A stretch of 54,437 nt of DNA from a virus, in IMG/VR virus record IMGVR_UViG_3300012985_000003, one strand, 5' to 3'. The notes beneath the pieces were generated by a model, which saw nothing but the letters and a program-made list of their open reading frames with translations, was not told where the DNA came from and made no database searches. A program made the position numbers and the translations under genes. The stretch's first letter is position 1. Each line of letters starts with the position of its first letter. Of the stretch, positions 1-54,437 are shown one piece after another.

Positions 1-123
1 ACCATCGTCGACGAGACGATCGACGAGCTCCGCCGCGGCGTCGTGGACGCCAAGCAGAACCTGTTCCAGAAGCTGAACACGCAGGCGTCCGACGAGGTGA
101 TCCGCCTCGGCGAGCGCGGCAAC
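1..123. repeat. Terminal overlap: nt 1-123 are identical to nt 54315-54437 (circular closure of the assembly)
   Basis: Read directly at both ends (accatcgtcgacgagacg...ggcgagcgcggcaac). The overlap lies inside one ORF and in frame with it. Confidence 0.9.
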
Positions 124-3100
124 GGCCTCGGGATCCCGCCGATGAGCAGCGTCTACATGGCGATCGACCAGCACATGTTCAGCATGCTGGAGAAGTTCAA
201 GAACAAGCTCGCGGCCCGCGTCGAGACCGACATCAACTACGGCGAGGTCGCCCCGATCCTGCCGGTCGGGCAGTCGACCACGCGCGAGGGCATCTCGGCC
301 GCCACCCCGGGCGCCACGATGCACCAGCTCACCGTCGGCAACGACGCGTTCCGCGCCCCGCAGCACCTGCACTACGGCGACTACCGCTCCCCGAGCGAGA
401 CCGCCGGCCAGCGCCCCGACAACCTGGTGGACGCCCTCGTCAGCTGGTACGAGGCGATCTCGAGCGGCATCGGCGTCTCCGTCCGGCAGTCGATCCTGAG
501 CCGCGACGAGATCAGCCAGCGAGCGATGGCGATCCTGCAGAGCGTCGCCCGCGCGTACGGGCTCGAGGGCAACGGCGTCGTCGGCGCCCACGTCGTCGCG
601 CAGCTCTCCATGCCCAACTACTCCCGTGAGGGCACCGAGTGGACCGACCAGGGTGGGTTCATCTCCCTCGGCCAGTGGGCTCTCCGCGAGGCCGCCCGCC
701 AGGTCGACCACATCGCCGAGTACGAGGAGAAGGCGGGGCTGATCCAGAGCCTCGACGCCGACGAGGCGTGGGTCGAGATCTTCGACGCGACGCCCCTCAT
801 TGCCGTGATGGGTGCCGCTGCCGACAACTTCGGCCCGCAGATGACGGTCGGACAGCTCAAGGCCCAGTACAAGGCGAAGGACACGTTCGCCCGGCGCGAC
901 TTCCGCGAGCGCGCCCGCACCGACTACCGCTACGCCGGTGAGCGCCACGACGCGCCGTACACCCGCGACGAGCTCCTCGAGCTCACGCTGGACGAGGCCG
1001 CGTACAAGACGAGCATCGACGCGATCTTCGCCGCCGCCGACAAGGAGCTCTCCGCAGACCCCCGCTCCGGCGAGATCAACCCGAACTCCACCGACTACGT
1101 GCGCGACCAGCGCATGCAGAAGAGCCTGGAGAACGCGTTCGAGTACACTCGCAGGGCTCTCGCCGACCTGGCCAAGCTGCACCGCATCAAGAAGCTCGAC
1201 GTGGCCAGCGTGCTGCGCCTGCTCGACGGCAACCCGAACTTCGCCCGCACCATCGCGGACCTGCTGCCGACCGACATCGTCAACGTCGTGTTCGAGCCGC
1301 TGCCCGACGGCCGCGTCAACGTGGCCCGCTGGTTCGCGGAGATGCTGACGCAGCCGCCGAAGCAGGCGGTCATGACGTACTTCCGCAACACGCTGCAGGC
1401 CAAGCTCAACGTGCTCGGCAACGAGACGAACCCCAAGATGGTCGACGACCGGATGGTGGAGCTCGTGCTGCAGCTGCAGACCGACCCGCCGCGCCTCGCC
1501 CGGTTCCAGGAGCTCCTGCTCACCAGCCAGGACCTCTCGGAGTTCATGGCGACCGTCAACAAGGAGTTCCGCACCGGCGCGCCGCAGCTCGCGTGGTTCC
1601 GGGACGTGGCGTCCTTCGACCCCTCCCGCACCGCCGGCGGCTGGAGCAAGCAGCTGCCCGGCGCGGAGCTCCGCGACGCGATCCGCAACTTCGCGAACGC
1701 GGCGGTCGGCTTCCAGGACTACGCGAGCCAGGAGCTCGAGCTCGACGCCAACGACGCGGACCTGATGACGACCCTGCAGCACGCGCTCGCCCAGTACAAG
1801 AGTGGCAAGCGATCCGACAGCCTGCACCTGCTCGACACGCTGCAGCGCTCGTTCGCCACCTCGGCCGGCCTGCGCCCCGCCCTCGGCCCCGGCACCCTGA
1901 TGCGCAGCGTCTTCGGCGCGATCAGCGGGTTCATGGGCAAGATGACGGACAAGGGCCTCGGCGCGACCTACTACGAGACCCTGAGCAACATCCAGGCCCT
2001 CGGGTACTCGCCGCTGCAGAGCATCGGCTACGCGCAGATGCTCGGAGCCATGACGACCTGGGACGCCGACGACGCCGCCGCCAACATGGGACTGTTCGCG
2101 GGGCAGAACCTGCGCCTCGCCGACCGCGAGGGCCGCATCATCGAGTGGACGGCCCTCTCCAACGCCGGCCAGGGCCGCGACAAGTACCAGGACGTCGAGC
2201 GGTTCCTCGAGATGTGGAAGGACCCGGCGTACCGGCCGATGCTGCGCGCCGCCGTCTTCCCCACGGCGTTCGAGACGCTCGAGAACGGTGGGATGAGCCA
2301 GCAGCTCCTCACCAAGATGGGCCTCCGCGACCTCGTCGGCGAGCCGACCGAAGGCACCGTGTACGACCGGATGCTCGGGTCCAACGCGAACCGGGACGTC
2401 CTCCGCTACGCCGCGCAGATCGACGCGCTGACCAGCAAGTACGGTCGCAACTTCGGCCTGCAGCGCTACGCCGCCGACCTCGCGATCGCCCGCACCTCCA
2501 CCGCGAGCCGCACGCTCACCCCGGACGAGCTCGAGGCGATCGCGAACGAGGCGATGCTGGACGTGGCGCGCATGCTCCGCGCCGCCGCCGCGTACGGCAA
2601 GCCCGAGGAGATCGCCAAGATGGTCTCCGACGCGACGCGCCGGCTCTCCCAGAACCTGTCGGTCGACGAGTCGTTCGGCTCCGACGTGGCTGAGACGATC
2701 CGCGACGGCATCTACGCGAACGCGCTCAGCGTGCTGCCGGAGAACGCGTCGCCCGAGCAGATCAAGGCCGCCGAGCAGCGCGACGAGATCCTCGCCCGCG
2801 TCGTCTACGGCAACGACAACCTGTTCCGCGACTACGCCCAGGCGTACCTCATCGACTGGAGCGACGGGACGACCTCGCTGGAGCGCATGCGCGCCCTCAA
2901 CGACGAGGTGCAGAACAACCCCGCGATCGCGCAGAGCACGCTGAGCGACGAGGTCCGCATGCTCACCACGGCGACCGCGACTGACGCGACCGGCCTGGTG
3001 CCGGTGCTCGCGGCCGACCCCGAGCTCAACCGGGAGCGCTGGGACGCCGTGGCCCGCGCGGTGCTCGCGTACAAGTTCACCGAGAGTATCGTCGGCGTGA

Positions 3101-6100
3101 CGAGCACTCGCGTCGCGATGAGCACCCTGCCGAAGACCGTGACGTACGAGAGCGTCCTGGACGCTCTCACGGGCGACCTGAAGCGTGACACCCTCGGCCA
3201 CGCGCGGTACATGGATCAGTCGTTCCGATACCTCACGGACGCGATCGCCGACCCGAAGTCGCCGGAGCTGCTCGCGGCCCAGGACTTCCTCAACCTCACG
3301 ATCGGCGAGGGCCAGCGCTTCACGCTGACCGACCGGGACGAGCTCGAGATGCTCATCAACCGCGTCGTCGACCCCGAGAAGCTGGGACGCTGGACGCCGG
3401 AGATCATGCGGCAGAGCGTCGACGCGCAGAACCGCATCGACTCCTCCGGAGCCAGCCGCCAGGTCTCGAGCTCGGGCATCCTGTACGCGAAGTACGCGGC
3501 CCCGATCGCCGCCACGCACCGCACCTACCTCGACCCGGAGTCCGCTGGGGTCAAGCCCCGCGTCTTCACGCTCAGCCCCGTCGCTGCAGCGTCGCTGCGC
3601 GGAGACGCGCTCCCGAGCCTGCTGGAGGACGGGCTGTTCGGCGAGGACGGTCACGTTGAGCCGCTCGCCATGCTCAACGGCCGCTTCCTCGCCCGAGGCG
3701 CAGACGCGATCGTCGTCACGTACCGCGACGCTGCCGGCAACACGATCCAGGCGAACCTCCGCGACGCCGCCGCCATCAGCCCGGACCACGAGTTCCAGGG
3801 CGAGGCGCTCGGTCGCCGCGTCGGACTCGCGTCCACGAGCCTGGAGGAGCTGAGCGCCAGCCTCGGCTCCCTCGTCCCGAACGACGCCACCGAGATCTCG
3901 GTGCAGGTCTCGATCTACCACCCGGCAGACCTTCCCCCCGGCGCCGAGTGGGCGAACAACCTGTTCTTCGAGGGCGAGGACGGCATCGGAGACACGTACG
4001 AGAGTCTCCTCGCCAGCGGCATCATGGGTATCGACGGCGAGAACGTCATCGAGCAGCTCGCGAGCCTCAAGGCGAACAAGAAGGGCACCGACGCGCTCAT
4101 CAACCCCAAGCTCCCCACGGCAGAGGACATCGCCCTCCTGGAGGAGCTGGGAGACGTGTACGAGGTGCTCAAGGCGAAGACGCTGTTCGTCCTGTCGCAC
4201 TCGCTCGGCCACCGCCCGCTCGACCCCAAGGGCTACAACTTCCTGTTCAAGGACCTGAAGATGCGGCACGCGCTGCTCGTCACGGACGCAAGCGGGAACC
4301 AGCAGCTGCTGTCGGCCGACGAGGCGATCCGCCTCCAGGCGACGAGCTCGCTGCCGGAGGGCTCGACGGCTCGACTCATCACGCTCTCGCCCCGCACGCT
4401 GAACACCCTGCTCGGCGAGCAGAACACCCAGGGCCTGCTTCGCCCGATGCTCGAGGCTCCGACCATCGACTCGGCGGCGACTCCCGTCTGGACGGGTTCG
4501 CTGACCCCGCTGCTCCGCAAGGTGCCGGGGATCGTGGAGTCAGGGTCCACGGTGAACCTGCTCAATACCCGAGTCGGGGCTCGAGGCGCGATGAGCCAGA
4601 GCTCCGTCCGCCCGCCGTACACCCCGGCGGAGCTGCAGGCCCAGAAGCGGCGCCTCGAGACCTGGCGCAACTACCGCGTCGGGCCCGACGCGAGCCGCGA
4701 GCGCAACGCCGAGCCGTACGTCAAGCGGCGCGTCGCCGCGATGGAGACGCTGCAGCGAGACCAGAACTTCCTGACCGGCGTCCCGCAGTACGCGCTGCGC
4801 CAGGCCGGCATCGCCATGAACCTTCCGATCGACGCGGACCCGCGCTCTTCGGACCTCGCCGCGCAGACGGCGTTCGCCCAGCTGAACGCGACGCTGCAGG
4901 GCGAGGAGTTCAGTACGGCGTGGCAGGTGCAGTACAAGCCCGGCAAGCTCACTGGCGGCCGGGTCGCGGGCGTCCTCAGCGGTCTGAACGACATCCGCCA
5001 GGAGCCGGGCGACCACGAGGCCGCCGGCCAGCGACTGCTGCACCGAGACCTCGCGATCGTCCACGTCGACACGTTCCCGCAGGACCCGATTGAGCGGAAG
5101 CGGGAGCTCATCTCCTTCGTGCGGGAGCTCGCGGACAAGGGCGTCAGCATTGCCCTCATCGACTCGACCGGATCCATCGACAGCCGCACGCTGACGCCGG
5201 CCGACCTCGACAAGATCATGTATCGCACGGTGCCTGGCACGCGCGGCCTGTTCGTCCCGTTCGACCCGACCAGCAACTTCCGCACCCTGGAGGCGCTGTA
5301 CTCGCGCCTCACGGAGACGGAGGAGCTGTGGCCGGACTCGTTCGCGACGGTCTTCCACTCCCGCACGCTGTCGGTCACCGAGAACGCGGCCCTGGCGAAC
5401 AAGCTCGCCAGCATGAACGGGCGCGAGCTCGTGCTCACGAGCAGCCTGGCCCCGATCAACGCGTACGACCAGTTCGGCGTCGCGGCCACGCAGGAGCAGC
5501 GCGTCTTCGTGAGCGAGCAGCTCAACGCGATGGCGGTCGACCCCCGCACGATCGACCACCTGCTCGCGATCAACCCGCCGGAGAAGGAGCCGGGCCGCCG
5601 CGTCAGCACGCGTCAGGCTCGCAAGGATGCCGACGCTCGCGCCGAGCTCACTGCAGCCCTCCGTCGGGCCGCGTCGAGCTACGACGTGGGAACCGGCCTC
5701 CCCGCCGTCGGCAGCGACTTCGGCACCGGCGACATCATCGTGCTCGTCGGCCCGGGCAACCGCCTGATCCTCGTCCGCCACGGCCACGAGCCGATCCGTG
5801 ACCTGACGGAGCTCTCGGCCCAGCTCGCCGCCCCGGCGAACGAGGGCGGGGCGGCCTCCAACGTCGCGATCTACGGCACCCGGACCCAGGAGAACGCGAC
5901 GGCGTACTCGGGCAAGATCCGCGCGTGGGTGCCGGAGAACGGGTACGGCCTGTCGGTTCGCCAGAGCATCGCGATCAGCGAGCTCGGCAACAAGGAGGTC
6001 CTGCAGCGCAACGGCGCGAAGCTCGTCATCAGCGGTGGCTTCGAGGAGGCGGGGCTCGAGGTGCCCGCCTTCGGGCCGCTCCGGAACTTCGACCTGAACT

Positions 6101-9100
6101 TCGCGACCCACTGGGCGGACACCGCGAGCAAGGAGAACTACGACGGGCTCATCGTGAGCGCCCGCGAGGCGTTCGCCTTCCTCGGGATGGACTTCGTCCC
6201 CGCCTACGCGGAGTCTCTGCTGGGGATCTCGCGCCCCGACTGGGACGCCCTGAAGCCGGCGGAGCAGCAGCGGATTCGACAGGACATCCAAGACCTGTTC
6301 AAGGAGCTCGCCCGCCAGGCTGAGCTCGACGTAGCCGCCGTCGAGAGCCTGCGCAACAGCCTGTTCAACCCCGACGACGCGTTCACTGCCGCGATGAGCC
6401 GCCTCTCCGGCAGCCTCGGCACGTTCAACACCGCCGTCCTGACGAAGCCGGTGGCGCAGCGAACGCCTGCCGACCAGGTGACGCTCGCAGCCCTCGTGTA
6501 CCTGCAGTACAAGCAGGCACGCCCGAGTGACGTGATGGGCGCCCCGGGCTTCGACGCCCCCCGCGTCGGCAACAACCCCGTCTCGGTGCGCCTGCCGGAG
6601 CTGTTCACGGCGACCTTCGACAAGGCGCCGCTCGGCAGCCCGCTGCGCGGCTACATCTTCAACGAGCTCAACCTTCGGCTGAACAACAAGCCGGGGCTCG
6701 AGGACGGATCGGGCTACCAGCTCAAGGAGGACTGGACGTTCCTCGTCACGAACAAGGACGCGTCGATGACGCACGAGGGCTACCTGCAGTTCGCCGAGCT
6801 CCACACCTCCGGACACACCCCAGAGCTCAAGGCACAGTCTCGCGATCGCAACCGCACCGAGGCGGCGTCTCGCCAGCAGACCCTGATGATCGAGGAGACG
6901 CTCGGCGCGCACCTGTACCGGGCGAAGGACCTGCGGAAGACGGAGGCGTTCGTCACCCGCTCCAACGTCACCAAGGTCCAGTCGGGTCGGGACGTGCTCG
7001 CCGTGATGAACAACGAGCGGCTCCGTCAGGTCCCGACCTACTCCCTGACGCGGCAACTGCTGCCGGCGGAGCGAGTGGCCCTCGAGGTCAACCGCGACGC
7101 CCGCATCCAGTTCGAGCAGCCCGCAGACGAGAGCGAGTGGACGACCGCCGAGAAGGCGGAGGCTGCCACGCTCCGCAACGGCATCGTGCTCGACATGGGG
7201 CTCACGGAGGCCAGCGCCTCCCGCGTCGACGCGTGGGTCCGCGCGTGGCTCGGCCGCCCCGCAGCCGCGCCCGGCCAGGACCCGACCATCGGCTCGTTCT
7301 CGTTCCGTGACTTCAAGGACGCGGTCGAGCTCGGGATCCGGCCCATGCTGAGCGAGGGCCGCTACCCGGTCGACCGCGCGAGCCAGAGCATGATGGGGCT
7401 GAGCGACGTGCTGCTCCTCGCCCGGGCGCACAAGCCCGGCAACAAGTGGCAGCTGCGCGGCGCCGACGGCACGGTCGCACAGAGCCTCGAGGACTTCGTC
7501 CTGGTGGCGCTGAACCCGAACCGCAACCCCCCGGAGCCGCTGTTCCAGACGGCCGCCGACGGCTACATGAACACCTTCCGCGAGATGGGCGACCTGTTCG
7601 CCAACCTCCCGGTGAGCATGGATCCCGTCCGCTCGGCCCAGCTCCAGACGGCCAACATCGGGAACGCCGGCGCCACCATCTCCAGCATCTTCGGTGGCCG
7701 GCTCTCCGGCGGCGTGTGGCAGGGCGACTACCCGCCCAGCTCGGGTCTCGACGCGGCGCAGAAGCGCTTCGCGGCGTACCGCAAGAAGAACTCGATCCCC
7801 GAGCCCGTGCCGCTGACGATGGAGCAGCTCCGCTCCGGCGGCTGGCGGTTCGTCACGCAGGGCACCAGCAGCAACGCCCTGATGCGGATCCTCACCAACA
7901 TGCGCGCCGCGAACGGCATGTTCAACCCGTGGCTGTACGTCACGGCCCCGGTCGAGAGCGGCATCAAGAACTTCCTGGAGGTCGTGAAGGACACGCTCAC
8001 CGGCGACGCCTTCGTCGGCGGCAAGGACCTGCAGCAGCGCGCGGCAGCCGTCGACCGGGCTCTCGGCGAGAACCAGGGCTTCATGGGCATGATCAACCAG
8101 GACATCCTGGTCCACGCGAAGCTGCACAACGCGGGCTGGGCCGAGCGGACCTCGGCGAAGCTCGCGGGGATCGCTGGCCGCTGGCAGGACCCGTCGTACG
8201 GCATGAAGCAGTCCATGATGGCGAAGCGGTACCGAATGAGCGTCATGAGCAACGCCATGAGCATGGGCAGCCGCATGACGCTCACGCCGGAGCAGCTGCT
8301 GAACGGGCTGCAGACGGACCCGCAGTTCGTCAAGAAGAACTACCGCGAGCTCCACCAGTACGCGATCAACCGCATCGCGAACCTTCGGAGCCTGAAGCCC
8401 ACCGTCCTGAGCCTGCTCCTGATGAAGAACTTCATCGACCCGCTGACGCACAACCCCCGCGTCATCGTGAACATCCCCGCGACGCTCGGGCTCAAGCTGC
8501 CGTTCCTGTTCTTCAACTACGCGAGCAACGCGGCGACGAACATGCTCGGCCTGCAGGCCCTCAACGCCGTCTCCGCCGTCGCGCTGAACAGCCCGTCCAT
8601 CAAGAAGGGCCTCGGCCACGCCCGCGCCTGGCTGAAGGGCGAGTCGAAGGACTACAACGCCGCCATCCACGACATCGACTTCGTGGCGGAGACGATGGAG
8701 AACGTCAACCTCGCCGACGCCGTCATCCAGAGCGGCCTGACCCACACGGCCCTGATGGGTCTCGGCCTGCTGACCGGCAGCCTCGGGCTGAACGGCGAGG
8801 ACGATGAGGACAAGCGTCGCCGCCGTGCAGCTCAGGCGGAGGGCGCCGGCTGGGTGTACGACCCGCGCGAGATCGTCAACGACTGGCGCAACGCCGACGC
8901 GCTGTACCTCGACAACCTGCCGGACTGGTTCCCGTTCGCGGAGCAGCTGAAGCAGATGTACAAGGTCGGCGTCGACCAGGACGGCGAGCCGGTGAGCATG
9001 GTGCAGCTGCACTGGACGCTCAAGCAGTTCATCTCGCCGATGATGGGCATCGACAACTACCTGACGACCGGCAACTTCGCCCACGTCCTCTGGGGCTTCG

Positions 9101-10515
9101 AGGACGCCCTCGGCAGCATGCCGCTGATCAACGAGACGGGCTTCGACGAGGCCGCGCGAATCGCGACCGAGCTCGAGAACGCTGCGCGCGACGCGGAGAG
9201 CCGGGGCAACCCGGTCGACCTCGTGAACAGCTTCGGCTTCATGATCAACGGCGTGATGGCGCTGGAGCGCATGCTGCTGGAGAACTCGTTCGTCAACAGC
9301 ATCTACACGGCGGCCGACCAGTACGACCGCGACCCGTACACCCTTGCCGACCTCAACGACACGGGCGAGATCCAGCGCGACGACAACGGGCAGCCGATGA
9401 AGACCGACGCGCTGCAGCAGTTTGTGAACGACGCCGGCGAGCCTGCGGTCGGATCCCTCCAGGCCAGTCCGACCGAGGCCCGGATCAAGACGCTCACGGA
9501 GAACCGCGCGAGCCTCGCGCTGTTCACCAGCCTCTTCACCGGACTCGCAGACAGTGAGTACATCCGGTACAACATGGCCGTGAAGACGCGCAAGGTCGAC
9601 GGGACCGAGCTCACCGAGAACGAAGCCATCAGCGTCATCATGAGCATGTGGGACCCGAAGCAGCAGCGCGAGGTCCTCACGACTGAGGGCGGCATGGCCG
9701 TCATCAAGGGCCTCCAGATGGGGACGCTGCGCCCCGGAGACCCGGCGATGGAGGGTCTGTACCTGTCGTACGAGGACCGCCAGAAGATCGCGAACGAGCT
9801 CACCGCGAAGCTGACCCAGGAGTACCTGGACCTCGGGCTCAGCAAGGACGTCGCGGACGAGCAGGTGCGCCAGACGTTCTACGGCAGCGAGACGAACCCG
9901 TACGCCACGCCGCTGAACGACGTGATCTTCAACAGCGACTACATCAGCTACAACCCGACGACCACGTACAAGCAGCTGAACACGACCTACGTCACCGGCC
10001 CGGACGGGATGCCGTGGGCGACTGGCATCGCGCGGAGCTCGCTGGAGAACTTCTTCGGCCAGGCCCCGCTCCAGACCTACAACTCCGGCCAGCTCGGCGG
10101 CGGACTCGACCAGGATTCGCGTCTCAACTCGACGGACTCCCTCGCCAACGTCAACACCGGCATGCGGAACCTCGAGCGCGAGCACTCGTCGGTCGCGAAC
10201 CCGACGATGAGTGACCTGCAGGAGCTGATCGACAAGAACTTCCAGGAAGTCCTGGATGCAGTCAACCACCCGAGCTGGACCAACTACGCCGACGGCGTCT
10301 ACGGTCGCTCCCGCTACAGCCGCTCCGGCGGCTACGGCGGCGGCGGCGGTGGAGGCGGCGGCTGGAGCTACCGCCTGAACGGGCCGGAGCGCGGCGACGT
10401 GACGTACAACCGCGGAATCCCCTTCGTCAATACCAGTAACCCCATCATTCGACGCTCTACAATTAGGAGAGAGCGTTTCTCCAGCGAACGCGGAAGGCTG
10501 AACCAGTGGCAGTAG
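1..10515 (+). CDS. Giant virion/ejection-type protein, C-terminal 3,504 codons. It continues from 51561..54437 across the junction; full length is 4,422 aa.
   Basis: One open frame runs from nt 1 to TAG 10513-10515, in frame with 51561..54437, with GC-rich third positions throughout. Hydrophobic helices lie near 8395-8800 (LSLLLMKNF, TALMGLGLLTGSLGL). A poly-Gly tract GYGGGGGGGGGW lies at about 10327-10365. Confidence 0.85.
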   Translation, partial: TIVDETIDELRRGVVDAKQNLFQKLNTQASDEVIRLGERGNGLGIPPMSSVYMAIDQHMFSMLEKFKNKLAARVETDINYGEVAPILPVGQSTTREGISAATPGATMHQLTVGNDAFRAPQHLHYGDYRSPSETAGQRPDNLVDALVSWYEAISSGIGVSVRQSILSRDEISQRAMAILQSVARAYGLEGNGVVGAHVVAQLSMPNYSREGTEWTDQGGFISLGQWALREAARQVDHIAEYEEKAGLIQSLDADEAWVEIFDATPLIAVMGAAADNFGPQMTVGQLKAQYKAKDTFARRDFRERARTDYRYAGERHDAPYTRDELLELTLDEAAYKTSIDAIFAAADKELSADPRSGEINPNSTDYVRDQRMQKSLENAFEYTRRALADLAKLHRIKKLDVASVLRLLDGNPNFARTIADLLPTDIVNVVFEPLPDGRVNVARWFAEMLTQPPKQAVMTYFRNTLQAKLNVLGNETNPKMVDDRMVELVLQLQTDPPRLARFQELLLTSQDLSEFMATVNKEFRTGAPQLAWFRDVASFDPSRTAGGWSKQLPGAELRDAIRNFANAAVGFQDYASQELELDANDADLMTTLQHALAQYKSGKRSDSLHLLDTLQRSFATSAGLRPALGPGTLMRSVFGAISGFMGKMTDKGLGATYYETLSNIQALGYSPLQSIGYAQMLGAMTTWDADDAAANMGLFAGQNLRLADREGRIIEWTALSNAGQGRDKYQDVERFLEMWKDPAYRPMLRAAVFPTAFETLENGGMSQQLLTKMGLRDLVGEPTEGTVYDRMLGSNANRDVLRYAAQIDALTSKYGRNFGLQRYAADLAIARTSTASRTLTPDELEAIANEAMLDVARMLRAAAAYGKPEEIAKMVSDATRRLSQNLSVDESFGSDVAETIRDGIYANALSVLPENASPEQIKAAEQRDEILARVVYGNDNLFRDYAQAYLIDWSDGTTSLERMRALNDEVQNNPAIAQSTLSDEVRMLTTATATDATGLVPVLAADPELNRERWDAVARAVLAYKFTESIVGVTSTRVAMSTLPKTVTYESVLDALTGDLKRDTLGHARYMDQSFRYLTDAIADPKSPELLAAQDFLNLTIGEGQRFTLTDRDELEMLINRVVDPEKLGRWTPEIMRQSVDAQNRIDSSGASRQVSSSGILYAKYAAPIAATHRTYLDPESAGVKPRVFTLSPVAAASLRGDALPSLLEDGLFGEDGHVEPLAMLNGRFLARGADAIVVTYRDAAGNTIQANLRDAAAISPDHEFQGEALGRRVGLASTSLEELSASLGSLVPNDATEISVQVSIYHPADLPPGAEWANNLFFEGEDGIGDTYESLLASGIMGIDGENVIEQLASLKANKKGTDALINPKLPTAEDIALLEELGDVYEVLKAKTLFVLSHSLGHRPLDPKGYNFLFKDLKMRHALLVTDASGNQQLLSADEAIRLQATSSLPEGSTARLITLSPRTLNTLLGEQNTQGLLRPMLEAPTIDSAATPVWTGSLTPLLRKVPGIVESGSTVNLLNTRVGARGAMSQSSVRPPYTPAELQAQKRRLETWRNYRVGPDASRERNAEPYVKRRVAAMETLQRDQNFLTGVPQYALRQAGIAMNLPIDADPRSSDLAAQTAFAQLNATLQGEEFSTAWQVQYKPGKLTGGRVAGVLSGLNDIRQEPGDHEAAGQRLLHRDLAIVHVDTFPQDPIERKRELISFVRELADKGVSIALIDSTGSIDSRTLTPADLDKIMYRTVPGTRGLFVPFDPTSNFRTLEALYSRLTETEELWPDSFATVFHSRTLSVTENAALANKLASMNGRELVLTSSLAPINAYDQFGVAATQEQRVFVSEQLNAMAVDPRTIDHLLAINPPEKEPGRRVSTRQARKDADARAELTAALRRAASSYDVGTGLPAVGSDFGTGDIIVLVGPGNRLILVRHGHEPIRDLTELSAQLAAPANEGGAASNVAIYGTRTQENATAYSGKIRAWVPENGYGLSVRQSIAISELGNKEVLQRNGAKLVISGGFEEAGLEVPAFGPLRNFDLNFATHWADTASKENYDGLIVSAREAFAFLGMDFVPAYAESLLGISRPDWDALKPAEQQRIRQDIQDLFKELARQAELDVAAVESLRNSLFNPDDAFTAAMSRLSGSLGTFNTAVLTKPVAQRTPADQVTLAALVYLQYKQARPSDVMGAPGFDAPRVGNNPVSVRLPELFTATFDKAPLGSPLRGYIFNELNLRLNNKPGLEDGSGYQLKEDWTFLVTNKDASMTHEGYLQFAELHTSGHTPELKAQSRDRNRTEAASRQQTLMIEETLGAHLYRAKDLRKTEAFVTRSNVTKVQSGRDVLAVMNNERLRQVPTYSLTRQLLPAERVALEVNRDARIQFEQPADESEWTTAEKAEAATLRNGIVLDMGLTEASASRVDAWVRAWLGRPAAAPGQDPTIGSFSFRDFKDAVELGIRPMLSEGRYPVDRASQSMMGLSDVLLLARAHKPGNKWQLRGADGTVAQSLEDFVLVALNPNRNPPEPLFQTAADGYMNTFREMGDLFANLPVSMDPVRSAQLQTANIGNAGATISSIFGGRLSGGVWQGDYPPSSGLDAAQKRFAAYRKKNSIPEPVPLTMEQLRSGGWRFVTQGTSSNALMRILTNMRAANGMFNPWLYVTAPVESGIKNFLEVVKDTLTGDAFVGGKDLQQRAAAVDRALGENQGFMGMINQDILVHAKLHNAGWAERTSAKLAGIAGRWQDPSYGMKQSMMAKRYRMSVMSNAMSMGSRMTLTPEQLLNGLQTDPQFVKKNYRELHQYAINRIANLRSLKPTVLSLLLMKNFIDPLTHNPRVIVNIPATLGLKLPFLFFNYASNAATNMLGLQALNAVSAVALNSPSIKKGLGHARAWLKGESKDYNAAIHDIDFVAETMENVNLADAVIQSGLTHTALMGLGLLTGSLGLNGEDDEDKRRRRAAQAEGAGWVYDPREIVNDWRNADALYLDNLPDWFPFAEQLKQMYKVGVDQDGEPVSMVQLHWTLKQFISPMMGIDNYLTTGNFAHVLWGFEDALGSMPLINETGFDEAARIATELENAARDAESRGNPVDLVNSFGFMINGVMALERMLLENSFVNSIYTAADQYDRDPYTLADLNDTGEIQRDDNGQPMKTDALQQFVNDAGEPAVGSLQASPTEARIKTLTENRASLALFTSLFTGLADSEYIRYNMAVKTRKVDGTELTENEAISVIMSMWDPKQQREVLTTEGGMAVIKGLQMGTLRPGDPAMEGLYLSYEDRQKIANELTAKLTQEYLDLGLSKDVADEQVRQTFYGSETNPYATPLNDVIFNSDYISYNPTTTYKQLNTTYVTGPDGMPWATGIARSSLENFFGQAPLQTYNSGQLGGGLDQDSRLNSTDSLANVNTGMRNLEREHSSVANPTMSDLQELIDKNFQEVLDAVNHPSWTNYADGVYGRSRYSRSGGYGGGGGGGGGWSYRLNGPERGDVTYNRGIPFVNTSNPIIRRSTIRRERFSSERGRLNQWQ

Positions 10516-12485
10516 CAGAGCCGATCACTAAGGTCGAACAGTGGTACACCAACCGCTCCGAGGGGCGGGACGGTGTGCTCGAGTTCCACGCGATCAGTGA
10601 CTGCGCGCAGGAGCTCAACCTCAAGTACCTGAAGTACAAGACCGAGATGGACGCTCGAGTCGCGAACTACTGGAAGCTCGAGAAGATCGCGGCGGCGGAG
10701 GTCATCAGCGAGAAGCCCGACCTGCCCAACATCAGCTCCGGCGAGACCGCCGGCATGATCCGCCGCATGGCGCGCAACCTCGTGCAGCACACTCCGAACT
10801 TCGAGGTCATCAGCAAGTTCGACGACGACGACGTCTACGGCATCTTCAGCCGCTGGATCCTCCGCAGCAAGATCTGCGGCGACGACCAGTACTCGAACGA
10901 CCTGCAGCAGAGCCTCTTCGCCTCGGCGAAGTCGGCCCTGACTCTCGGGTTCGACTGCGTGATCCCTGTGCTCGCGCAGGACGCGAAGAACGGGTGGTAC
11001 ATCAAGTACGACAACATCCACTACCGCGACGTCTTCCCCGAGCCCGGGGCGCGCGACATCCGGCAGGCGACCGACGTGTTCGTCCGCCGCTACCTCACCA
11101 AGGGCCAGGCCAAGAGCAAGATCGGCCTGGCGGGCTGGGACGATGCCGCCCTGAAGGCGATGCTGAAGACCCCGCCCCCGCCGCGCGAGATGCAGAGCGT
11201 GGATCACGAGTCGAAGAAGCGCGGCCAGATCCCCGACGGCTACGAGATCGTGACGTGGTACTCGAACACGGGCGAGCCGTTCCTCACGTTCGAGACCCGG
11301 TCGAAGATGCTGCTCCGCATCGAGCCCAACAAGCACCCGCTGAAGGAGCACCCGGTCTTCTTCCTCGTGCTGGAGAAGGACCTGTCGCAGCCCCTCGGCA
11401 AGAGCCAGGTCGAGCTCCTGCTTGGCCGCCAGGAGTTCCAGGATCTGCTGCTCAACGGTGCCATGAAGATGTGGTACCGCAACATCAACCCGATGATCAT
11501 CGGCCTCGGCACCGGCCTGAACGGCACCCCCAACCTGGGCCCCGGCAAGTTCATCCAGGTCGGCAACCCGAACGCAAAGTTCGAGACGTTCGAGCAGAAC
11601 AGCCAGACGCTGCTGCAGTACAACCAGATCGCCACAGCCAACCAGGGCAACATGGTGCAGCTCATCGGCGCCGCAGACCAGCAGATGGCGATGCAGGGCA
11701 CCGGCGGGGCGATGAGCCAGACACCGCAGGGCGTCGAGGCGCAGCAGGCGATGGTCGACATCACGACCAACAACTACCAGAAGGCGATCGAGTCCTTCGC
11801 CAGCCGATACGCGGGGTACGCCCTGACGATCTTCTTCCAGGAGCTCAAGAGCGTCAAGAGCATCGTGCCGACGGCGGACGCGCGAGTGCAGCTGCTCAAG
11901 GCGGGGCTCGACCCGGAGCTGTTCGTCGCGACCCCCGCCGAGGGAGAGAAGCCTGCCAAGGAGGAGGGCACGCTCGTGATGGACTTCTCGGACCTCGCGA
12001 CGGAGTACTTCGTCCGCGCCATCCCCGGGTCCCTCGTCGAGATGGAAGACGAGAAGCAGCTGCGGATCCTGAACCAGCTGTTCGTCCCCCTCAGCCAGGC
12101 CATGCCGGCGCTCGCGGCATCCGGCAACCAGCAGGCGCTCGCGCACGCGACGGCCGCGATGCTCTACATCGTCGAGAAGGAGATCGAGCTCACCGGCGCG
12201 ACCCACTCGAAGGAGCTCAAGGAGCTGCTCGTGCAGGGGGAGACCGAGCAGTTCCGCGCGCAGAAGGCGGAGCAGGCGGCGATCGAGGCCAACATCAACC
12301 AGCCCGACGAGGACGTGGAGAACGAGAAGCAGGCGTTCGTGGCCGCGATCGAGTCCCAGTCGAAGCAGCTCTCCGTGCTCACCGAGGCGGTCGCGGAGCT
12401 CCTGGCGCGGCAGTCAGGGGGGCAATCTGTACAATCTGCCCCTGCAACTGCGGGTGTAGCACCTGCAACTGCTGTACCCGCGTAG
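10506..12485 (+). CDS. Portal protein (putative)
   Basis: 659-aa ORF. Its GTG overlaps the giant-gene stop (GTGGCAGTAG). It sits immediately upstream of the capsid gene, and its size and acidic/Q-rich C-terminus are typical of podovirus portals. Confidence 0.6.
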   Translation: MAVAEPITKVEQWYTNRSEGRDGVLEFHAISDCAQELNLKYLKYKTEMDARVANYWKLEKIAAAEVISEKPDLPNISSGETAGMIRRMARNLVQHTPNFEVISKFDDDDVYGIFSRWILRSKICGDDQYSNDLQQSLFASAKSALTLGFDCVIPVLAQDAKNGWYIKYDNIHYRDVFPEPGARDIRQATDVFVRRYLTKGQAKSKIGLAGWDDAALKAMLKTPPPPREMQSVDHESKKRGQIPDGYEIVTWYSNTGEPFLTFETRSKMLLRIEPNKHPLKEHPVFFLVLEKDLSQPLGKSQVELLLGRQEFQDLLLNGAMKMWYRNINPMIIGLGTGLNGTPNLGPGKFIQVGNPNAKFETFEQNSQTLLQYNQIATANQGNMVQLIGAADQQMAMQGTGGAMSQTPQGVEAQQAMVDITTNNYQKAIESFASRYAGYALTIFFQELKSVKSIVPTADARVQLLKAGLDPELFVATPAEGEKPAKEEGTLVMDFSDLATEYFVRAIPGSLVEMEDEKQLRILNQLFVPLSQAMPALAASGNQQALAHATAAMLYIVEKEIELTGATHSKELKELLVQGETEQFRAQKAEQAAIEANINQPDEDVENEKQAFVAAIESQSKQLSVLTEAVAELLARQSGGQSVQSAPATAGVAPATAVPA

Positions 12486-14343: not shown

Positions 14344-14367
14344 GCTCCAAGTTAGAGAGGAGTGGCG

Positions 14368-19526: not shown

Positions 19527-19976
19527 ATGTGGGCACACGTTACGAACTCAGTGGTCGACGGCTTCGGCCCGCCGCCATCGCTGGTGTTTGCGGACGACCG
19601 GTGGTGGGACCTTCGCCCGATGGACCCCGCGATCCTGAACGCTCGAGGCTGGTATCTCGTCACTGAGCAGCCTCGCCCGGCGGACACGGCGACCCAGACA
19701 GCTGACGCTGTGTACACCTTCGACGAGCCGACGAAGACGGTCATCACGACGTGGATACTGCGGAACAAGACGCCGGAGGAGTCCGCAGCTGCTGCGAGTC
19801 GGTCCAACCAGAGCAACATCGAGACGTCTCTCCGGCAGGACCTCCTCGACATCCAGGCGGTGATCGACGCGACCAACGCATCCATCAACAGCAGCCCCGC
19901 ATCCTCGATCAAGACCCTCGCACGAGTCGTGCGACGGCTCAACAAGTACGCGCTCCGAGACTTCGGCAGCGTCTAA
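19527..19976 (+). CDS. Hypothetical protein
   Basis: 149-aa ORF with a natural-looking sequence and high GC3. Confidence 0.75.
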   Translation: MWAHVTNSVVDGFGPPPSLVFADDRWWDLRPMDPAILNARGWYLVTEQPRPADTATQTADAVYTFDEPTKTVITTWILRNKTPEESAAAASRSNQSNIETSLRQDLLDIQAVIDATNASINSSPASSIKTLARVVRRLNKYALRDFGSV

Positions 19977-19990
19977 CAAGGGAGAACACC

Positions 19991-50163: not shown

Positions 50164-50270
50164 AATTCCTTTCCCTTCTCTCTCCCAAAAATAGGTTCCC
50201 ACCTATGGAGGCTAGCCAGCCGAAGGCCCTCGCCAGGGCCCACGCAAGCCTGCTCAAGTGACGGAGAAGA

Positions 50271-50846: not shown

Positions 50847-51107
50847 CTACTTGATACCCGCGAGGCGGTTGAGCTGACGCTCGTAGAACGCGATGAGTGT
50901 CGCGTTGGCAGTCCGAGATTCGGGTGTTGCCCGAAGCTCAGCCAGCTTGTTGCCGATGTTCTCGACCTTGACGAGCATGTCGTCCGTGACTTCCATGATC
51001 ATCTTGTCGAGGATGGCGTTCTGTGCCTCAGTGACCTTGGGGTCCTGAAGCATGCGGGTGACCTGGGCGTCGAGCAACGGCTGGAGATTGAGCTGAAATG
51101 CGGACAT
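50847..51107 (-). CDS. First leftward (early) gene, hypothetical 86-aa helical protein
   Basis: ATG 51107 follows AAAGGAA. The AT-rich 5' extension of the track ORF looks non-coding. Confidence 0.7.
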   Translation of the reverse strand: MSAFQLNLQPLLDAQVTRMLQDPKVTEAQNAILDKMIMEVTDDMLVKVENIGNKLAELRATPESRTANATLIAFYERQLNRLAGIK

Positions 51108-51124
51108 GGTGACGAAGTTCCTTT

Positions 51125-51290
51125 GGCTAGATTGACTTGATCCAAAAATTGATACTTGATTCACTTGATACTATCGATTCAATGATTTATATGACTGACC
51201 TATACCCATACATATACATGTATAGGGGGGTATAGATGTGTGTTATTTGTTTCTATTGTATTAATGGATCTCCACAGAAAAAGTTCCCGC
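51125..51290. promoter_or_regulatory. AT-rich divergent control region with repeats and a composite palindrome
   Basis: It shows a sharp GC drop. ACTTGAT occurs three times (51135, 51154, 51163). An imperfect palindrome spans 51200-51235 around ATACATGTAT. Confidence 0.5.
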
Positions 51291-51490
51291 TTTCCTGAGA
51301 ACCATCGGCACCTTCTCAACTCTCGTAACGGTTTTCCCCGGGGATTCCGCCCCGACTCCGGATCGTCACCCGTGTTTCCCGGGTAGAGGCCCGTGCCCGG
51401 CGGTCCCGGGCCGAGTTCCCCGGGAGCGAGGGTCGCCCTCGGCCGGGGATCGGGGCTCCCTCCGGCGGCGAGTGTGCCGAGGTGGGGCGC

Positions 51491-51518
51491 GCGAAACCCG
51501 CCAGGGACGGGCTATAAT
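51491..51518 (+). promoter_or_regulatory. Promoter-like motif GCGAAA-N16-TATAAT upstream of the giant gene
   Basis: An exact TATAAT lies 43 nt before ATG 51561. It has the same GCGAAACC box as the site at 27197 and is bracketed by an 8-bp inverted repeat. Confidence 0.45.
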
Positions 51519-51560
51519 CGAGGGAGTAGCCGGACCCGTCCCCCGGCGTTGGAGTGGTCG

Positions 51561-54437
51561 ATGGCCGGCTGGCGCGAATCCCGGTTTGCTACTGAGGCGC
51601 CGGTCGCGGCCCCCGTCGGAGCCCAGCAGCAGTCGGTCACCCAGGATGAGACGCGCGCCGCCGGCGGCTGGCAGGGCAGCCGGTTCGCCCTGGAGGCGGC
51701 GCCCCGGCTCCCGAAGTGGCAGAGCGGCGGCCAGGTCGGCTCCACGGAGAACGGCTGGAACACGCCCTTCTACCAAAAGATGTTCGACCAGCGCAACGCG
51801 CGGCTGGACGCCGGCACGATCGGCGACTGGTACTCGAGCGAGGACTTCACCGGCGTCGCGACGTGGGAGGGCCAGAAGGCCGCCGACGGGCGAGACATCC
51901 GCCTCGGCGACGTGTACGAGGACGGCACCTACCGGGGCAACCTGCTGGACCCGAAGAGCGGCTACGACGAGGCCACCGGCTACCAGATGCTCGCGCAGCT
52001 GAGCCTCAGCGCGGACGAGCAGAAGCACGCGTACGAGCGGCTCCGCTCGAACCCCCTCGCGGTCAAGGAGGCGGTCGACGCCCGCGCGGCGGAGGACACG
52101 CGCAACGTCGCGGCGGCCCAGGGCAGCAAGGCCTACCAGAGCGAGATCGACCAGCAGAAGAGCGAGTGGGACGACGCCGTCGAGGGCACCCTGGCGATCG
52201 CCGCCGGTGCCGTGGGCGGCGCGGCGCTCGGCATCTTCGGAGGCCCGATCGGCATCGCAGCCGGTGCCGTGGTCGGTGGCGTGGCGGCGGCGGCCAACAA
52301 GGACTTCCTGGTCGACCAGGCGGCGCGGGCCACCGTGCAGACGGGCATGGCCGCGGAGCAGTTCGGCCCGGCGGGCGGCCTGAGCACGGGCCTGCAGCAG
52401 TGGGGCGGCGCGGCGCTGAGCGCCTTCACCCCCCTCTCCAACCTGACGCAGGGTATCACGGACCTCGCCAACGGCGGCTGGGACGACTCGAGCGCCTACT
52501 ACGACATGGGCGCCGAGCGGCCCTGGTGGCTCACGGGCCTCGGGATCACGGCGACCCTCGGCGACTCGCTCCTGCAGTTCGCCAGCCCCGTCGGCCAGGC
52601 CGCGTTCAAGACGGCGATGGGCGCGACCGTGGCCGGCGGCGCGGGGCAGCTCGCCTTCCAGGGAGGCGCGCGGTTCGACGACCGCATCGGCAACTTCGAC
52701 GCGCCGGACGACCCGGGCCAGTGGCTCGCCGCCATCGGCGCGGTGGGTATGGACGTCGTCCAGCTCGCCGGGGCTCGAGGCATCGCCCGTGCCGTCACCA
52801 GCGCAGACCGCGCGGCGCTCGGTACGGTCGACGACGCGAGCCGGCTCAGCCTGTTCAACCGCACGATGCCGGAGGGCGCCGTCCGCACCGAGCGCATCGG
52901 TGGCAAGCAGTTCTACCTGGACGAGGCGGGCCAGGTCGTCGGCACCCCGCGCACCACGATGACGATGCTCGCCCCGAGCGAGGCGACGATGTGGGCCAGC
53001 GCGAAGCTGCAGACCCAGATCATGCGGGCGCAGCACGGCGGCGCGATCAGCCCTCAGCAGGCGAACCAGCTGCTGTACCAGGCGGCGAAGGACATCGAGG
53101 GCGGCACGAACCTCGCGAAGACGGCGCTCGTGAACGCGTTCGGCGAGGGTCTCGAGGAGGCGACCCAGTCGGTGCTCGAGCCCCTGAGCCACGGCTGGAC
53201 CCCCGACGGCAACGACGTCATCATGAGCTACCTGCAGGGCGCCGCCGCCGGCGCGGGCATGAGCGTCGGCGCCCGGGTCGGGAGCTACTCCGCCAACGAG
53301 CGGGGCTACCTGCGGAGCCAGCAGATCGCCAAGCTGAACAACGTCACCCCGCCGACCCGCGAGCAGTGGGACAGCTGGACGCCGGAGCAGAAGCGCCAGG
53401 CGACCGCCGCCCCGCCCCTCGTCTCGATGGGGCTCCGCGAGGCCGGCGAGCGCGCGGCGCGCGAGCAGGTGATGGAGGCCGTCAAGTTCGACGTGGGTCT
53501 CGAGAAGAGCCTGGACGCCGCCCTGCTGACGCAGGACAAGGAGATGCGGAGCCTGAACCCGGCCCTGGAGGGCACGTTCACGCTCGGCTCGCTGCAGTCC
53601 AGCGACATCCCCAACCACGTCGTGCTGAGCGACTTCGACTCCGTCGTGAACCTGCTCCAGAGCAACGCCGACTCCGTGCGCGACCAGATCGCCCAGCGCA
53701 ACCCGGCGCCGCAGCTCGAGCCCATCGCGGAGGCTCAGGCGATGGTCCTGGAGCAGATGCACCGGCTGCAGCGGGAGTTCGTGTCGGCGACTCCGGAGCG
53801 CCAGGCCCAGATCGTGCGCGACGCGAACGAGGTCATCCAGGTCGCGTGGGACTCGGTCGTCCAGGAGGGCGACGTCATCACCGGCAGCCCGTACGCGAAG
53901 GCCGTCGGCGTGCTGCTCAGCCGCTCCCCGAACAACAGCGCAGGCTCGTTCCAGATGCTGATGCCGCAGGTCTCCCTGCAGGACACGCTCGACGGCGGGC
54001 AGGGCCTGCTGAAGGTCAGCCACGCGATCCTGAAGATGATCGACGGCGACTTCGACGGCGACATGGTGCGCCAGCACGTCCAGGTCGCGATCGAGATCGA
54101 GGACGACGCGTACCGCGCGCTGCGGCTCGGCCTGAACGCGCTCGGCATGCGCGACGGCTCCGTCAAGATCGGCACCCGCGACACCGAGGAGTTCATCATC
54201 GACCGCCTCGGGCTGGCGGCGAAGGGTGGCGTCGGCAGCAAGAGCGCCGAGGCGACCCTCCGGGTGATGAGCGCCTGGCTGAAGACGAACCTCGCGACCG
54301 TCCCCAACATCGACACCATCGTCGACGAGACGATCGACGAGCTCCGCCGCGGCGTCGTGGACGCCAAGCAGAACCTGTTCCAGAAGCTGAACACGCAGGC
54401 GTCCGACGAGGTGATCCGCCTCGGCGAGCGCGGCAAC
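51561..54437 (+). CDS. Giant protein, N-terminal 959 codons (runs off the window end and continues at nt 1/124); contains RNAP-like double-psi-barrel motifs
   Basis: ATG 51561 lies 6 nt after GGAG. The frame has no stop to the window end and is in frame with nt 1. A glycine-zipper hydrophobic pair lies at about 52185-52296, a beta-like motif at 52893-52982 and a beta-prime-like motif at 53922-54143. Confidence 0.85.
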   Translation, partial: MAGWRESRFATEAPVAAPVGAQQQSVTQDETRAAGGWQGSRFALEAAPRLPKWQSGGQVGSTENGWNTPFYQKMFDQRNARLDAGTIGDWYSSEDFTGVATWEGQKAADGRDIRLGDVYEDGTYRGNLLDPKSGYDEATGYQMLAQLSLSADEQKHAYERLRSNPLAVKEAVDARAAEDTRNVAAAQGSKAYQSEIDQQKSEWDDAVEGTLAIAAGAVGGAALGIFGGPIGIAAGAVVGGVAAAANKDFLVDQAARATVQTGMAAEQFGPAGGLSTGLQQWGGAALSAFTPLSNLTQGITDLANGGWDDSSAYYDMGAERPWWLTGLGITATLGDSLLQFASPVGQAAFKTAMGATVAGGAGQLAFQGGARFDDRIGNFDAPDDPGQWLAAIGAVGMDVVQLAGARGIARAVTSADRAALGTVDDASRLSLFNRTMPEGAVRTERIGGKQFYLDEAGQVVGTPRTTMTMLAPSEATMWASAKLQTQIMRAQHGGAISPQQANQLLYQAAKDIEGGTNLAKTALVNAFGEGLEEATQSVLEPLSHGWTPDGNDVIMSYLQGAAAGAGMSVGARVGSYSANERGYLRSQQIAKLNNVTPPTREQWDSWTPEQKRQATAAPPLVSMGLREAGERAAREQVMEAVKFDVGLEKSLDAALLTQDKEMRSLNPALEGTFTLGSLQSSDIPNHVVLSDFDSVVNLLQSNADSVRDQIAQRNPAPQLEPIAEAQAMVLEQMHRLQREFVSATPERQAQIVRDANEVIQVAWDSVVQEGDVITGSPYAKAVGVLLSRSPNNSAGSFQMLMPQVSLQDTLDGGQGLLKVSHAILKMIDGDFDGDMVRQHVQVAIEIEDDAYRALRLGLNALGMRDGSVKIGTRDTEEFIIDRLGLAAKGGVGSKSAEATLRVMSAWLKTNLATVPNIDTIVDETIDELRRGVVDAKQNLFQKLNTQASDEVIRLGERGN
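54315..54437. repeat. Second copy of the 123-bp terminal overlap
   Basis: Identical to nt 1-123. Confidence 0.9.

Follow-up and report, generated by a model that had tools for sequence, protein, structure and literature searches.

A giant 13.3-kb phage gene encodes a predicted two-barrel RNA polymerase

We found that a single, unbroken 13.3-kb gene, which fills a quarter of a phage genome of about 54.3 kb, carries both catalytic barrels of a predicted two-barrel (cellular-type) RNA polymerase (RNAP). The gene belongs to a known family of giant actinobacterial-phage virion proteins whose role has been called elusive, and its product is probably an enzyme that is injected with the DNA. Activity and virion packaging are inferred for this uncultured phage, for which there are no virion, expression or activity data. 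The giant gene itself has been described previously, and the window analyzed here (the whole 54,437-nt stretch, 65.9% G+C) contributes a new and rather distant member. The new element is the assignment of function.

We first asked whether the gene is real. Bases 1-123 of the window are identical to bases 54315-54437. ATG 51561 opens a frame with no stop to the window end (2,877 nt), base 54315 (= base 1) is in frame, and frame 1 of the head runs to TAG 10513-10515. Joined once through the overlap, this gives 2,754 + 10,515 = 13,269 nt, or 4,422 aa plus stop, which is 24.4% of the 54,314-bp non-redundant genome. The nearest upstream in-frame stop is at 51384-51386, and a GGAG lies 6 nt before the ATG. 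GC3 of the ORF is 0.95, as in the other genes, indicating that it is coding rather than a chance high-GC ORF. An exhaustive protein search returned a 4,422-aa protein identical residue for residue to our reconstruction, and its gene lies uninterrupted on two independent contigs, ENA ERZ27311764 (31.3 kb) and Logan SRR6478735 (14.7 kb). Both contigs hold the 800-nt junction sequence exactly, with the 123 nt present once. Isolated relatives are circularly permuted, so the 123-nt overlap is most likely an assembly artefact and not a physical terminal repeat. The features of the gene and its surroundings are as follows.

51107..51560 (no strand assigned), non-coding leader of the giant gene, with an AT-rich stretch at 51110-51290 and TATAAT at 51513-18 inside a GGGACGGG/CCCGTCCC hairpin
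51561..54437 (+), 5' part of the giant gene (aa 1-959; the last 41 aa are encoded by the duplicated overlap), with GGAG at 51551-54
52179..52289 (+), Gly/Ala-rich hydrophobic hairpin (aa 207-243), the only transmembrane-like segment, part of the conserved N-terminal ~500-aa module, a candidate membrane-insertion or ejection module (inferred)
53883..54170 (+), β′-like double-psi β-barrel (aa ~775-870), with R788-x-P790 at 53922-53930 and the catalytic D830-F-D-G-D834 at 54048-54062
54315..54437 (no strand assigned), 123-nt exact copy of bases 1-123, a circular-assembly overlap to be counted once
1..10515 (+), 3' part of the giant gene (aa 919-4422 plus TAG at 10513-10515)
3127..3846 (+), least conserved, gap-rich stretch (aa ~1961-2200) between the two polymerase halves, a candidate linker or processing site (inferred)
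5014..6261 (+), β-like module (aa 2590-3005) with the second barrel, with G2828-D-I-I at 5728-5739, K2916 at 5992-94, K2925 at 6019-21 and K2962 at 6130-32
8644..10512 (+), most conserved region (aa ~3800-4422), with an acidic/basic run GEDDEDKRRRR, poly-Gly and a near-invariant C-terminus IRRxTIRRERFSSERGRLNQWQ; a packaging or portal-docking signal is suggested (inferred)
10506..12485 (+), portal gene, whose start overlaps the stop of the giant gene by 10 nt

The giant gene is the first of the rightward arm, as the nearest upstream gene (50847-51107) is on the other strand. The portal gene that follows is 61% identical over 654 aa to MissAmericana gp31, which is annotated as a portal, and the same order is found in Burro, Akoni, Phedro and Arete. 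The first-pass annotation had proposed one gene spanning the junction and lying first in the rightward arm directly upstream of the portal, and had noted, without asserting membership, that surveys of Microbacterium phages mention genes of about 13.5 kbp. All three claims are supported; no function had been proposed. Jacobs-Sera et al. 2020 (PMC7302621) describe exactly this gene in cluster EK and singleton Burro. The protein is colinear over its full length with Arthrobacter phage MissAmericana gp30 (43% aa identity), Burro gp27 (about 30%), Akoni gp31 and the cluster EK proteins (about 25%), and full-length colinear homologues also lie upstream of the portal in Arete and Phedro. Database searches with phmmer gave E-values reaching 1e-217 and returned 212 representatives at 50% clustering, and 125 of the best 150 are 4,170-4,898 aa long.

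We next examined the first barrel. R788, P790, D830, D832, G833 and D834 are invariant in 125 of 125 family representatives, and many members read ADFDGD, as in β′ NADFDGD. A 30-sequence profile has phiKZ gp55 (nvRNAP β′; 7ogp_A) as its top PDB hit, aligned in register (E=1.1e-4), and the AR9 β′ also appears. An hhalign comparison against a jumbo-phage/E. coli β′ profile gives a probability of 86.6% and E=4.5e-6. The AF2 model of this region has pLDDT 81.7 and pTM 0.75, and its six best Foldseek matches in PDB are plastid and Thermus β′, vaccinia Rpo147 and QDE-1. No Foldseek hit for the β′ model is significant on its own (best E=0.34), and the case rests on the ranking plus the sequence profile. 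In BFVD, the best matches after the family's own members are giant-virus RNAP subunits (Solivirus E=0.016, prob 0.95).

The second module is seen only by structure. Its AF2 model (aa 2590-3005) has pLDDT 78.9, and all 50 top Foldseek PDB matches are second-largest RNAP subunits (β/Rpb2/A135/ASFV subunit 2), with best E=2e-3 and 2.6e-3, prob 0.90 and 290-360 aligned columns. In contrast, a profile of the module finds nothing in PDB sequences, and hhalign against E. coli RpoB is uninformative. G2828, R2844, G2846, K2916, K2925 and K2962 are 96-99% conserved (K2916 and K2925, 97-99%). K2916, G2923, K2925 and K2962 are 90-99% conserved, with K2916 and K2925 in a G-x-K-x6-G-x-K motif resembling β GDKMAGRHGNK; that these two match the lysines that contact the NTP and RNA 3' end in E. 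coli β (K1065, K1073) is only inferred. Both models rest on alignments of only 25-30 sequences, and the bridge helix, trigger loop and clamp were not located.

Outside the barrels, Kyte-Doolittle hydropathy reaches >=1.5 only in the N-terminal hairpin, in or near which G235, G239, N246 and D248 are conserved; two predicted TM domains near the N-terminus of Burro gp27 have been noted (PMC7302621). Between the polymerase halves, column occupancy falls to 0.60-0.77 and conservation to 0.25-0.28. The conserved C-terminal region gave no Pfam, PHROG or PDB sequence match. No other RNAP or sigma factor was found among the 23 larger ORFs scanned with Pfam and/or PHROGs (of 35 ORFs), and a motif scan found only a weak DYDND in ORF 14362-15516. 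The TATAAT in the leader was not scored as a sigma-70 promoter by the scan, although its presence means that host RNAP may read at least part of the genome.

With reasonable but not full confidence, we interpret the gene as one 13.27-kb cistron of a circularly assembled podophage genome of the EK/Burro/MissAmericana type. Its 482-kDa product would be a modular virion protein with an N-terminal ~500-aa module bearing a Gly-rich membrane hairpin, a β′-like half carrying the Mg-binding DFDGD barrel, a poorly conserved linker (aa ~1960-2200), a β-like half carrying the second, lysine-bearing barrel, and a highly conserved ~600-1,200-aa C-terminal module. The two barrels together would form the active site. 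In the proposed mechanism, the protein is made late, packaged inside the capsid, possibly after cleavage into two ~240-kDa halves, and ejected with the DNA through the short tail, with the terminal modules helping it to cross the Gram-positive envelope, after which it transcribes the first phage genes independently of the host polymerase. Packaging in this phage, processing, ejection and the genes transcribed are inferred. Virion association is taken from Burro, whose virions contain a ~250-kDa protein that can only come from this gene (PMC7302621). Such an assignment explains why a 54-kb phage spends a quarter of its genome on one virion protein, and it predicts rifampicin-resistant early transcription in Microbacterium and Arthrobacter phages that are already in culture in many teaching laboratories.

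A purely structural internal-core, ejectosome or tape measure-like protein, with the barrels as noncatalytic relics and host RNAP transcribing all genes, appears unlikely. RefSeq and GenBank annotate homologues as tape measure protein, the gene lies in the structural arm next to the portal, it has terminal hydrophobic and conserved modules, and a TATAAT lies upstream. However, relatives are podoviruses with tails shorter than 10 nm, the authors note no similarity to tape measure proteins, there is no Pfam or PHROG tape measure match, and the gene is not in a tail-gene position. Moreover, a relic would not keep R-x-P and D-x-D-G-D in 125 of 125 representatives that share only about 25-45% identity overall.

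We consider similarly doubtful a polyprotein cleaved into several unrelated mature proteins, including separate β′-like and β-like subunits of an RNAP that acts inside the cell late or in the middle of infection and is not carried in the virion. The Burro band is about half of the full length, and cutting at about aa 2150, within the gap-rich stretch, gives 233- and 249-kDa halves. Nevertheless, the ~250-kDa fragment is in purified virions, so at least half of the protein is packaged, and no protease domain was detected in the Pfam and PHROG searches. Processing is compatible with our preferred interpretation and is not truly exclusive of it.

A two-barrel enzyme of another specificity, either a QDE-1-like RNA-dependent RNA polymerase or a PolD-like DNA polymerase or primase, seems very unlikely. 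QDE-1 is among the top Foldseek hits for the β′ barrel, and PolD also has paired double-psi β-barrels, but the β module matches DNA-dependent multisubunit RNAP β/Rpb2 with no PolD or QDE-1 in the top 50. In addition, the best sequence match is a phage DNA-dependent RNAP, and the phage already encodes PolA and Prim-Pol. An artefact of mis-joined contig ends or a chance frame, which the contig-end position and the many long spurious ORFs of high-GC DNA might suggest, is refuted by the identical intact gene on two independent assemblies; its GC3 and more than 200 homologues of similar length also speak against it.

It is somewhat more likely than not that the largest gene of actinobacteriophages, with function unassigned since 2020, encodes a complete β′-β fused RNAP in reversed order, packed into a podovirus head and injected into Gram-positive actinobacteria. 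This would be a further, independent lineage of virion RNAPs, closer to multisubunit and jumbo-phage enzymes than to the compact QDE-1-like ones, and widespread in the environment, with at least 212 clusters at 50% identity, nearly all 4.2-4.9 thousand residues long.

The closest known system is the giant gene of Microbacterium cluster EK phages, singleton Burro (Burrovirus) and MissAmericana, which is the same gene at 4,400-4,500 aa and about 25% of a ~54-kb genome, with the rest of the genome in the same layout. There is no megablast-level DNA match to any isolate, so the phage described here represents a separate lineage known only from metagenomes. Podovirus morphology was shown by electron microscopy for EK phages, and the virion band by SDS-PAGE for Burro (PMC7302621, PMC8281081). 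Papers up to March 2026 give no function, and databases label the protein hypothetical or, wrongly, tape measure.

Precedents exist for virion two-barrel RNAPs inside giant proteins. Thermus phage P23-45 gp96, a 5,002-aa tape measure protein with an N-terminal two-barrel virion RNAP (Chaban et al. 2024, PMC10770324), is likewise a giant virion protein with a DFDGD motif, otherwise unrecognisable by sequence, that delivers its RNAP with the DNA to transcribe the first genes. However, gp96 is from a siphovirus, its RNAP is a compact ~800-aa single-chain unit, and the rest of the protein is a true tape measure; here the phage type is inferred from relatives to be a podovirus, and the β part resembles multisubunit β. 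No gp96 structure appeared among the listed matches. [quoted passage not shown] 2021) is a large virion-packaged protein of a podovirus-like phage with a DFDxD barrel, ejected to transcribe early genes, but it is QDE-1-like, its hosts are Bacteroidota, and no sequence or top structural match to it was seen. Notably, QDE-1, phi14:2 gp66, P23-45 gp96 and gp64, and YonO have a compact core in the order DPBB-B, connector, DPBB-A (PMC10770324), whereas here DPBB-A (aa ~830) precedes DPBB-B (aa ~2830-2960) by about 2,000 residues, the reverse of every known single-chain two-barrel RNAP. This order weighs against our interpretation but would, if the assignment holds, add a new architecture to the evolution of cellular-type RNAPs.

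Phage N4 gp50 (3,500 aa) is also a giant, capsid-packaged, ejected polymerase of a podovirus, with N- and C-terminal domains used for ejection and encapsidation. Jacobs-Sera et al. found no similarity to this enzyme, although it has a T7-like single-subunit fold rather than a two-barrel fold; we found no Pfam or PDB sequence match to T7-type motifs, and the structural matches are to two-barrel enzymes only. At the sequence level, the best relative of the β′ barrel is found in the non-canonical multisubunit RNAPs of jumbo phages (phiKZ gp55/gp74/gp71-73, AR9), in which β′ and β are also separate large modules, each more like the multisubunit type. In jumbo phages the subunits are split into several small genes, whereas here they are fused into one chain with extra terminal modules, in a 54-kb genome.

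We first examined the continuity of the giant gene. The sequence is 54,437 nt long and 65.9% G+C, with its first 123 bases repeated exactly at its end. ATG 51561 opens a frame that stays open to the last base, base 54315 (which equals base 1) falls on a codon boundary, and frame 1 of the head is open to TAG 10513-10515. Counting the overlap once gives 13,269 nt, or 4,422 codons plus a stop, corresponding to 24.4% of the 54,314-bp unit genome. These values are exactly those of the first-pass annotation, which had proposed a single gene spanning the assembly junction. Third-position G+C is 0.95, as in the other genes of the contig, indicating that this is not a chance high-GC frame, and a GGAG lies 6 nt upstream of the ATG. 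Although two word-indexed homologue searches returned no hits, an exhaustive HMMER search of 1.84 billion representative proteins returned P0001, a 4,422-aa protein identical to our junction-spanning reconstruction. The gene encoding P0001 lies uninterrupted on two independent assemblies, an ENA MEGAHIT contig of 31.3 kb (ERZ27311764) and a Logan contig of 14.7 kb (SRR6478735), both of which contain the 800 nt across the junction exactly, with the 123 nt present once. Isolated relatives are reported as circularly permuted. The overlap is therefore an artefact of assembling a circular or permuted genome rather than a physical terminal repeat, and the gene does not cross a real DNA end. The reading of the gene itself as an assembly artefact is rejected.

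Notably, the giant gene also runs off a contig end in two further IMG/VR contigs of 52-54 kb (IMGVR_UViG_3300042531_000036 and IMGVR_UViG_3300042922_001297). Arbitrary linearisation inside this gene is common in databases and will split the protein in automated annotation. The ENA contig differs from our sequence at only 2 of 26,014 bases, at contig positions 23777 and 23801 (about 11337 and 11361 here). Both differences fall inside the portal gene, which is called in that record as two ORFs of 172 and 469 aa instead of one of 659 aa, reflecting either a variant or an assembly error.

We next asked to which family the protein belongs. Megablast found no match in 50,697 phage records, whereas sensitive blastn and tblastn searches found one group only: Arthrobacter phage MissAmericana, Microbacterium phage Burro and its relatives, and the cluster EK phages. 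In every one of these, a 13.3-13.5-kb gene is the first gene of the rightward arm and is followed directly by the portal gene. The protein aligns with its counterparts end to end, with an identity of 43% to MissAmericana, about 30% to Burro and Arete, and about 25% to Akoni, Phedro, and an IMG/VR relative. The next gene is 61% identical to the MissAmericana portal. The rest of the genome has the same plan, with tail proteins, endolysin, and the large terminase subunit in the rightward arm and Prim-Pol, helicases, a family A DNA polymerase, and an AAA ATPase in the leftward arm. A tail-region protein (15509-16906) has a fibronectin type III domain (E=4e-12), and an endolysin (19751-20686; PHROG 2649, E=2e-43) has a peptidoglycan-binding domain, both of which are ordinary for phages of Gram-positive hosts.

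Jacobs-Sera et al. 2020 (PMC7302621) described this gene as the most striking feature of cluster EK and Burro, and reported a product of more than 4,400 residues, few informative domains, no similarity to N4 vRNAP, and a ~250-kDa protein in Burro virions that can only derive from it. Genome announcements from 2021 to March 2026 still call the function unknown or 'elusive'. The tentative link made in the first-pass annotation, to Microbacterium phages with genes of about 13.5 kbp, is thus supported, and the present protein is a rather distant addition to this known group. The family is much larger than the isolates suggest, with 212 representatives at 50% clustering with E<=1e-3, of which 125 of the best 150 are 4,170-4,898 residues long.

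Standard libraries were uninformative about the function of the protein. Pfam and PHROGs searches of the whole protein in pieces found nothing meaningful, Pfam searches of 10 homologous segments one by one gave only noise, and a phmmer search of aa 1-959 against PDB sequences found nothing. A whole-length profile searched against PDB was dominated by poly-Gly linker artefacts. On reading the sequence, however, we noticed IDGDFDGDM at aa 826-834, which resembles the universal NADFDGD magnesium-binding loop of RNA polymerase beta'. In a MAFFT alignment of 125 full-length representatives, none more than 50% identical to another, six residues are conserved in 100% of sequences: R788, P790, D830, D832, G833, and D834. 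Many members read ADFDGD. The spacing and flanks also match the beta' barrel, as the family has L-S-R-x-P-x3-G-S-F-Q, about 30 residues, then h-L-K-x-h-x-G-D-F-D-G-D, and beta' has LLNRAPTLHRLGIQAF, about 25 residues, then AAYNADFDGD.

We then tested this resemblance by sequence statistics and structure prediction. A six-sequence profile of the region searched against all PDB sequences placed the beta' subunits of phages AR9 and phiKZ on top with alignments in register, although these hits were only marginal (E=0.13-0.4). With 30 sequences, phiKZ gp55 is the top hit at E=1.1e-4. hhalign comparisons with single E. coli RpoB and RpoC sequences were weak or spurious, but profile-profile comparison with an alignment of seven jumbo-phage beta' N-terminal subunits plus E. 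coli beta' gives a probability of 86.6% and E=4.5e-6 over 86 columns, again in register. An AlphaFold2 model of aa 690-1060, built on 30 family sequences, has a mean pLDDT of 81.7 and a pTM of 0.75. Its six best Foldseek matches among 350,542 PDB chains are the tobacco plastid and Thermus beta' subunits, vaccinia Rpo147 (two entries), and QDE-1 (two entries), with Pol II Rpb1 at rank 8 and Pol I A190 and a second Rpb1 entry further down the list. No single E-value is significant for this model taken alone, the best being 0.34 with a probability of 0.80. In the viral library, the hits after the family's own members (labelled 'Uncharacterized protein') are giant-virus RNAP subunits.

A two-barrel enzyme also needs a beta-type barrel, and we found a candidate about 2,000 residues downstream. 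It reads G2828-D-I-I-x-L, then R2844-H-G, then G-N-K2916-x6-G2923-x-K2925, then L-P, then K2962, with these positions 90-99% conserved, and resembles the beta motifs GDILVGK and GDKMAGRHGNKGVIS. Sequence methods do not confirm this assignment, as profiles of the region found no RNAP among PDB sequences, but predicted structure supports it. The AlphaFold2 model of aa 2590-3005 has a pLDDT of 78.9, and all 50 of its top PDB matches are the second-largest subunit of a multisubunit RNAP: Pol I A135 (E=2e-3, prob 0.90), Thermus beta (2.6e-3, 0.87), then mycobacterial, cyanobacterial, Pol II, and ASFV subunits, with alignments spanning 290-360 columns. Each structure model rests on only 25-30 sequences, and the Foldseek E-values are modest. 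Taken together, these results indicate that the protein very likely contains homologues of both catalytic modules of a cellular-type RNA polymerase, with the catalytic residues under absolute conservation.

The conservation profile and hydropathy suggest five parts of the protein, which is encoded by 51561-54314 joined to 1-10512:
aa 1-~500, a conserved module containing the only transmembrane-like segment, a Gly/Ala-rich hairpin at aa 207-243
aa ~500-1950, the beta'-like half
aa ~1960-2200, the most gap-rich and least conserved stretch
aa ~2200-3150, the beta-like half
aa ~3150-4422, a C-terminal region whose last 600 residues are the most conserved of all

The C-terminal region ends in a poly-Gly run followed by a basic sequence, IRRxTIRRERFSSERGRLNQWQ, that is nearly invariant across 125 representatives. 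The protein is 482 kDa, acidic (pI 5.1), and has no cysteine in its 4,422 residues. A cut near aa 2150 would give halves of 233 and 249 kDa, which would fit the single ~250-kDa band seen in Burro virions, although such processing is an inference.

No other RNA polymerase or sigma factor was found among the 23 larger ORFs scanned with Pfam and/or PHROGs, out of 35 ORFs, and a motif scan of all 35 found only a weak DYDND in ORF 14362-15516. A sigma-70 scan of the divergent region was at background level. The non-coding DNA upstream of the giant gene contains the following features:
50264-50500, twelve copies of RCGTAACGA, in both orientations, packed into about 230 nt of the gap between the two gene arms
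51110-51290, a strongly AT-rich block in a 66% G+C genome, just upstream of the giant gene
51504-51542, closer to the ATG, a GGGACGGG/CCCGTCCC hairpin with a TATAAT (51513-18) in its loop

The repeats form an iteron- or operator-like array, a candidate replication origin or regulator binding site, with 21 matches at <=1 mismatch in the whole sequence against 7.0 +/- 2.5 expected. The AT-rich block and the TATAAT hairpin are possible promoter elements.

By analogy with N4 gp50, crAss-like gp66, and P23-45 gp96, we propose that the protein is made late, from a gene translationally linked to the portal gene, and packed in the head. It would then be ejected with the DNA, with the terminal modules serving envelope passage and encapsidation, and would transcribe the first genes. 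Virion association is known from the literature for Burro, whereas packaging in this uncultured phage, processing, ejection, and the identity of the transcribed genes are inferred. We consider a virion-delivered early polymerase somewhat more likely than not, a more tentative conclusion than the presence of the two RNAP modules. The gene as such is known. The functional reading appears to be new, as we found no statement linking this gene to RNA polymerase in the EK papers or in the literature searched, which does not cover all journals, so that prior notice elsewhere cannot be excluded.

We rejected two other readings of the protein. Homologous giant genes are annotated 'tail length tape measure protein' or 'tape measure protein' in records NC_048860 (Arete), NC_048801 (Araxxi), and PQ184795 (MissAmericana), although these phages are podoviruses, which is probably a mis-annotation driven by length. 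The protein is not a tape measure protein, and it is not an N4-type polymerase. In function, it would work like the virion polymerases of crAss-like phages and P23-45. However, it lacks one defining feature of the single-chain two-barrel group, in which DPBB-B, a connector, and then DPBB-A lie within a compact core; here, DPBB-A comes first, and DPBB-B follows about 2,000 residues later. The beta part matches multisubunit beta over some 300 columns rather than QDE-1-like enzymes, and the best sequence relative of the beta' barrel is a jumbo-phage multisubunit enzyme. The protein therefore looks like a beta'-beta fusion of multisubunit-type modules.
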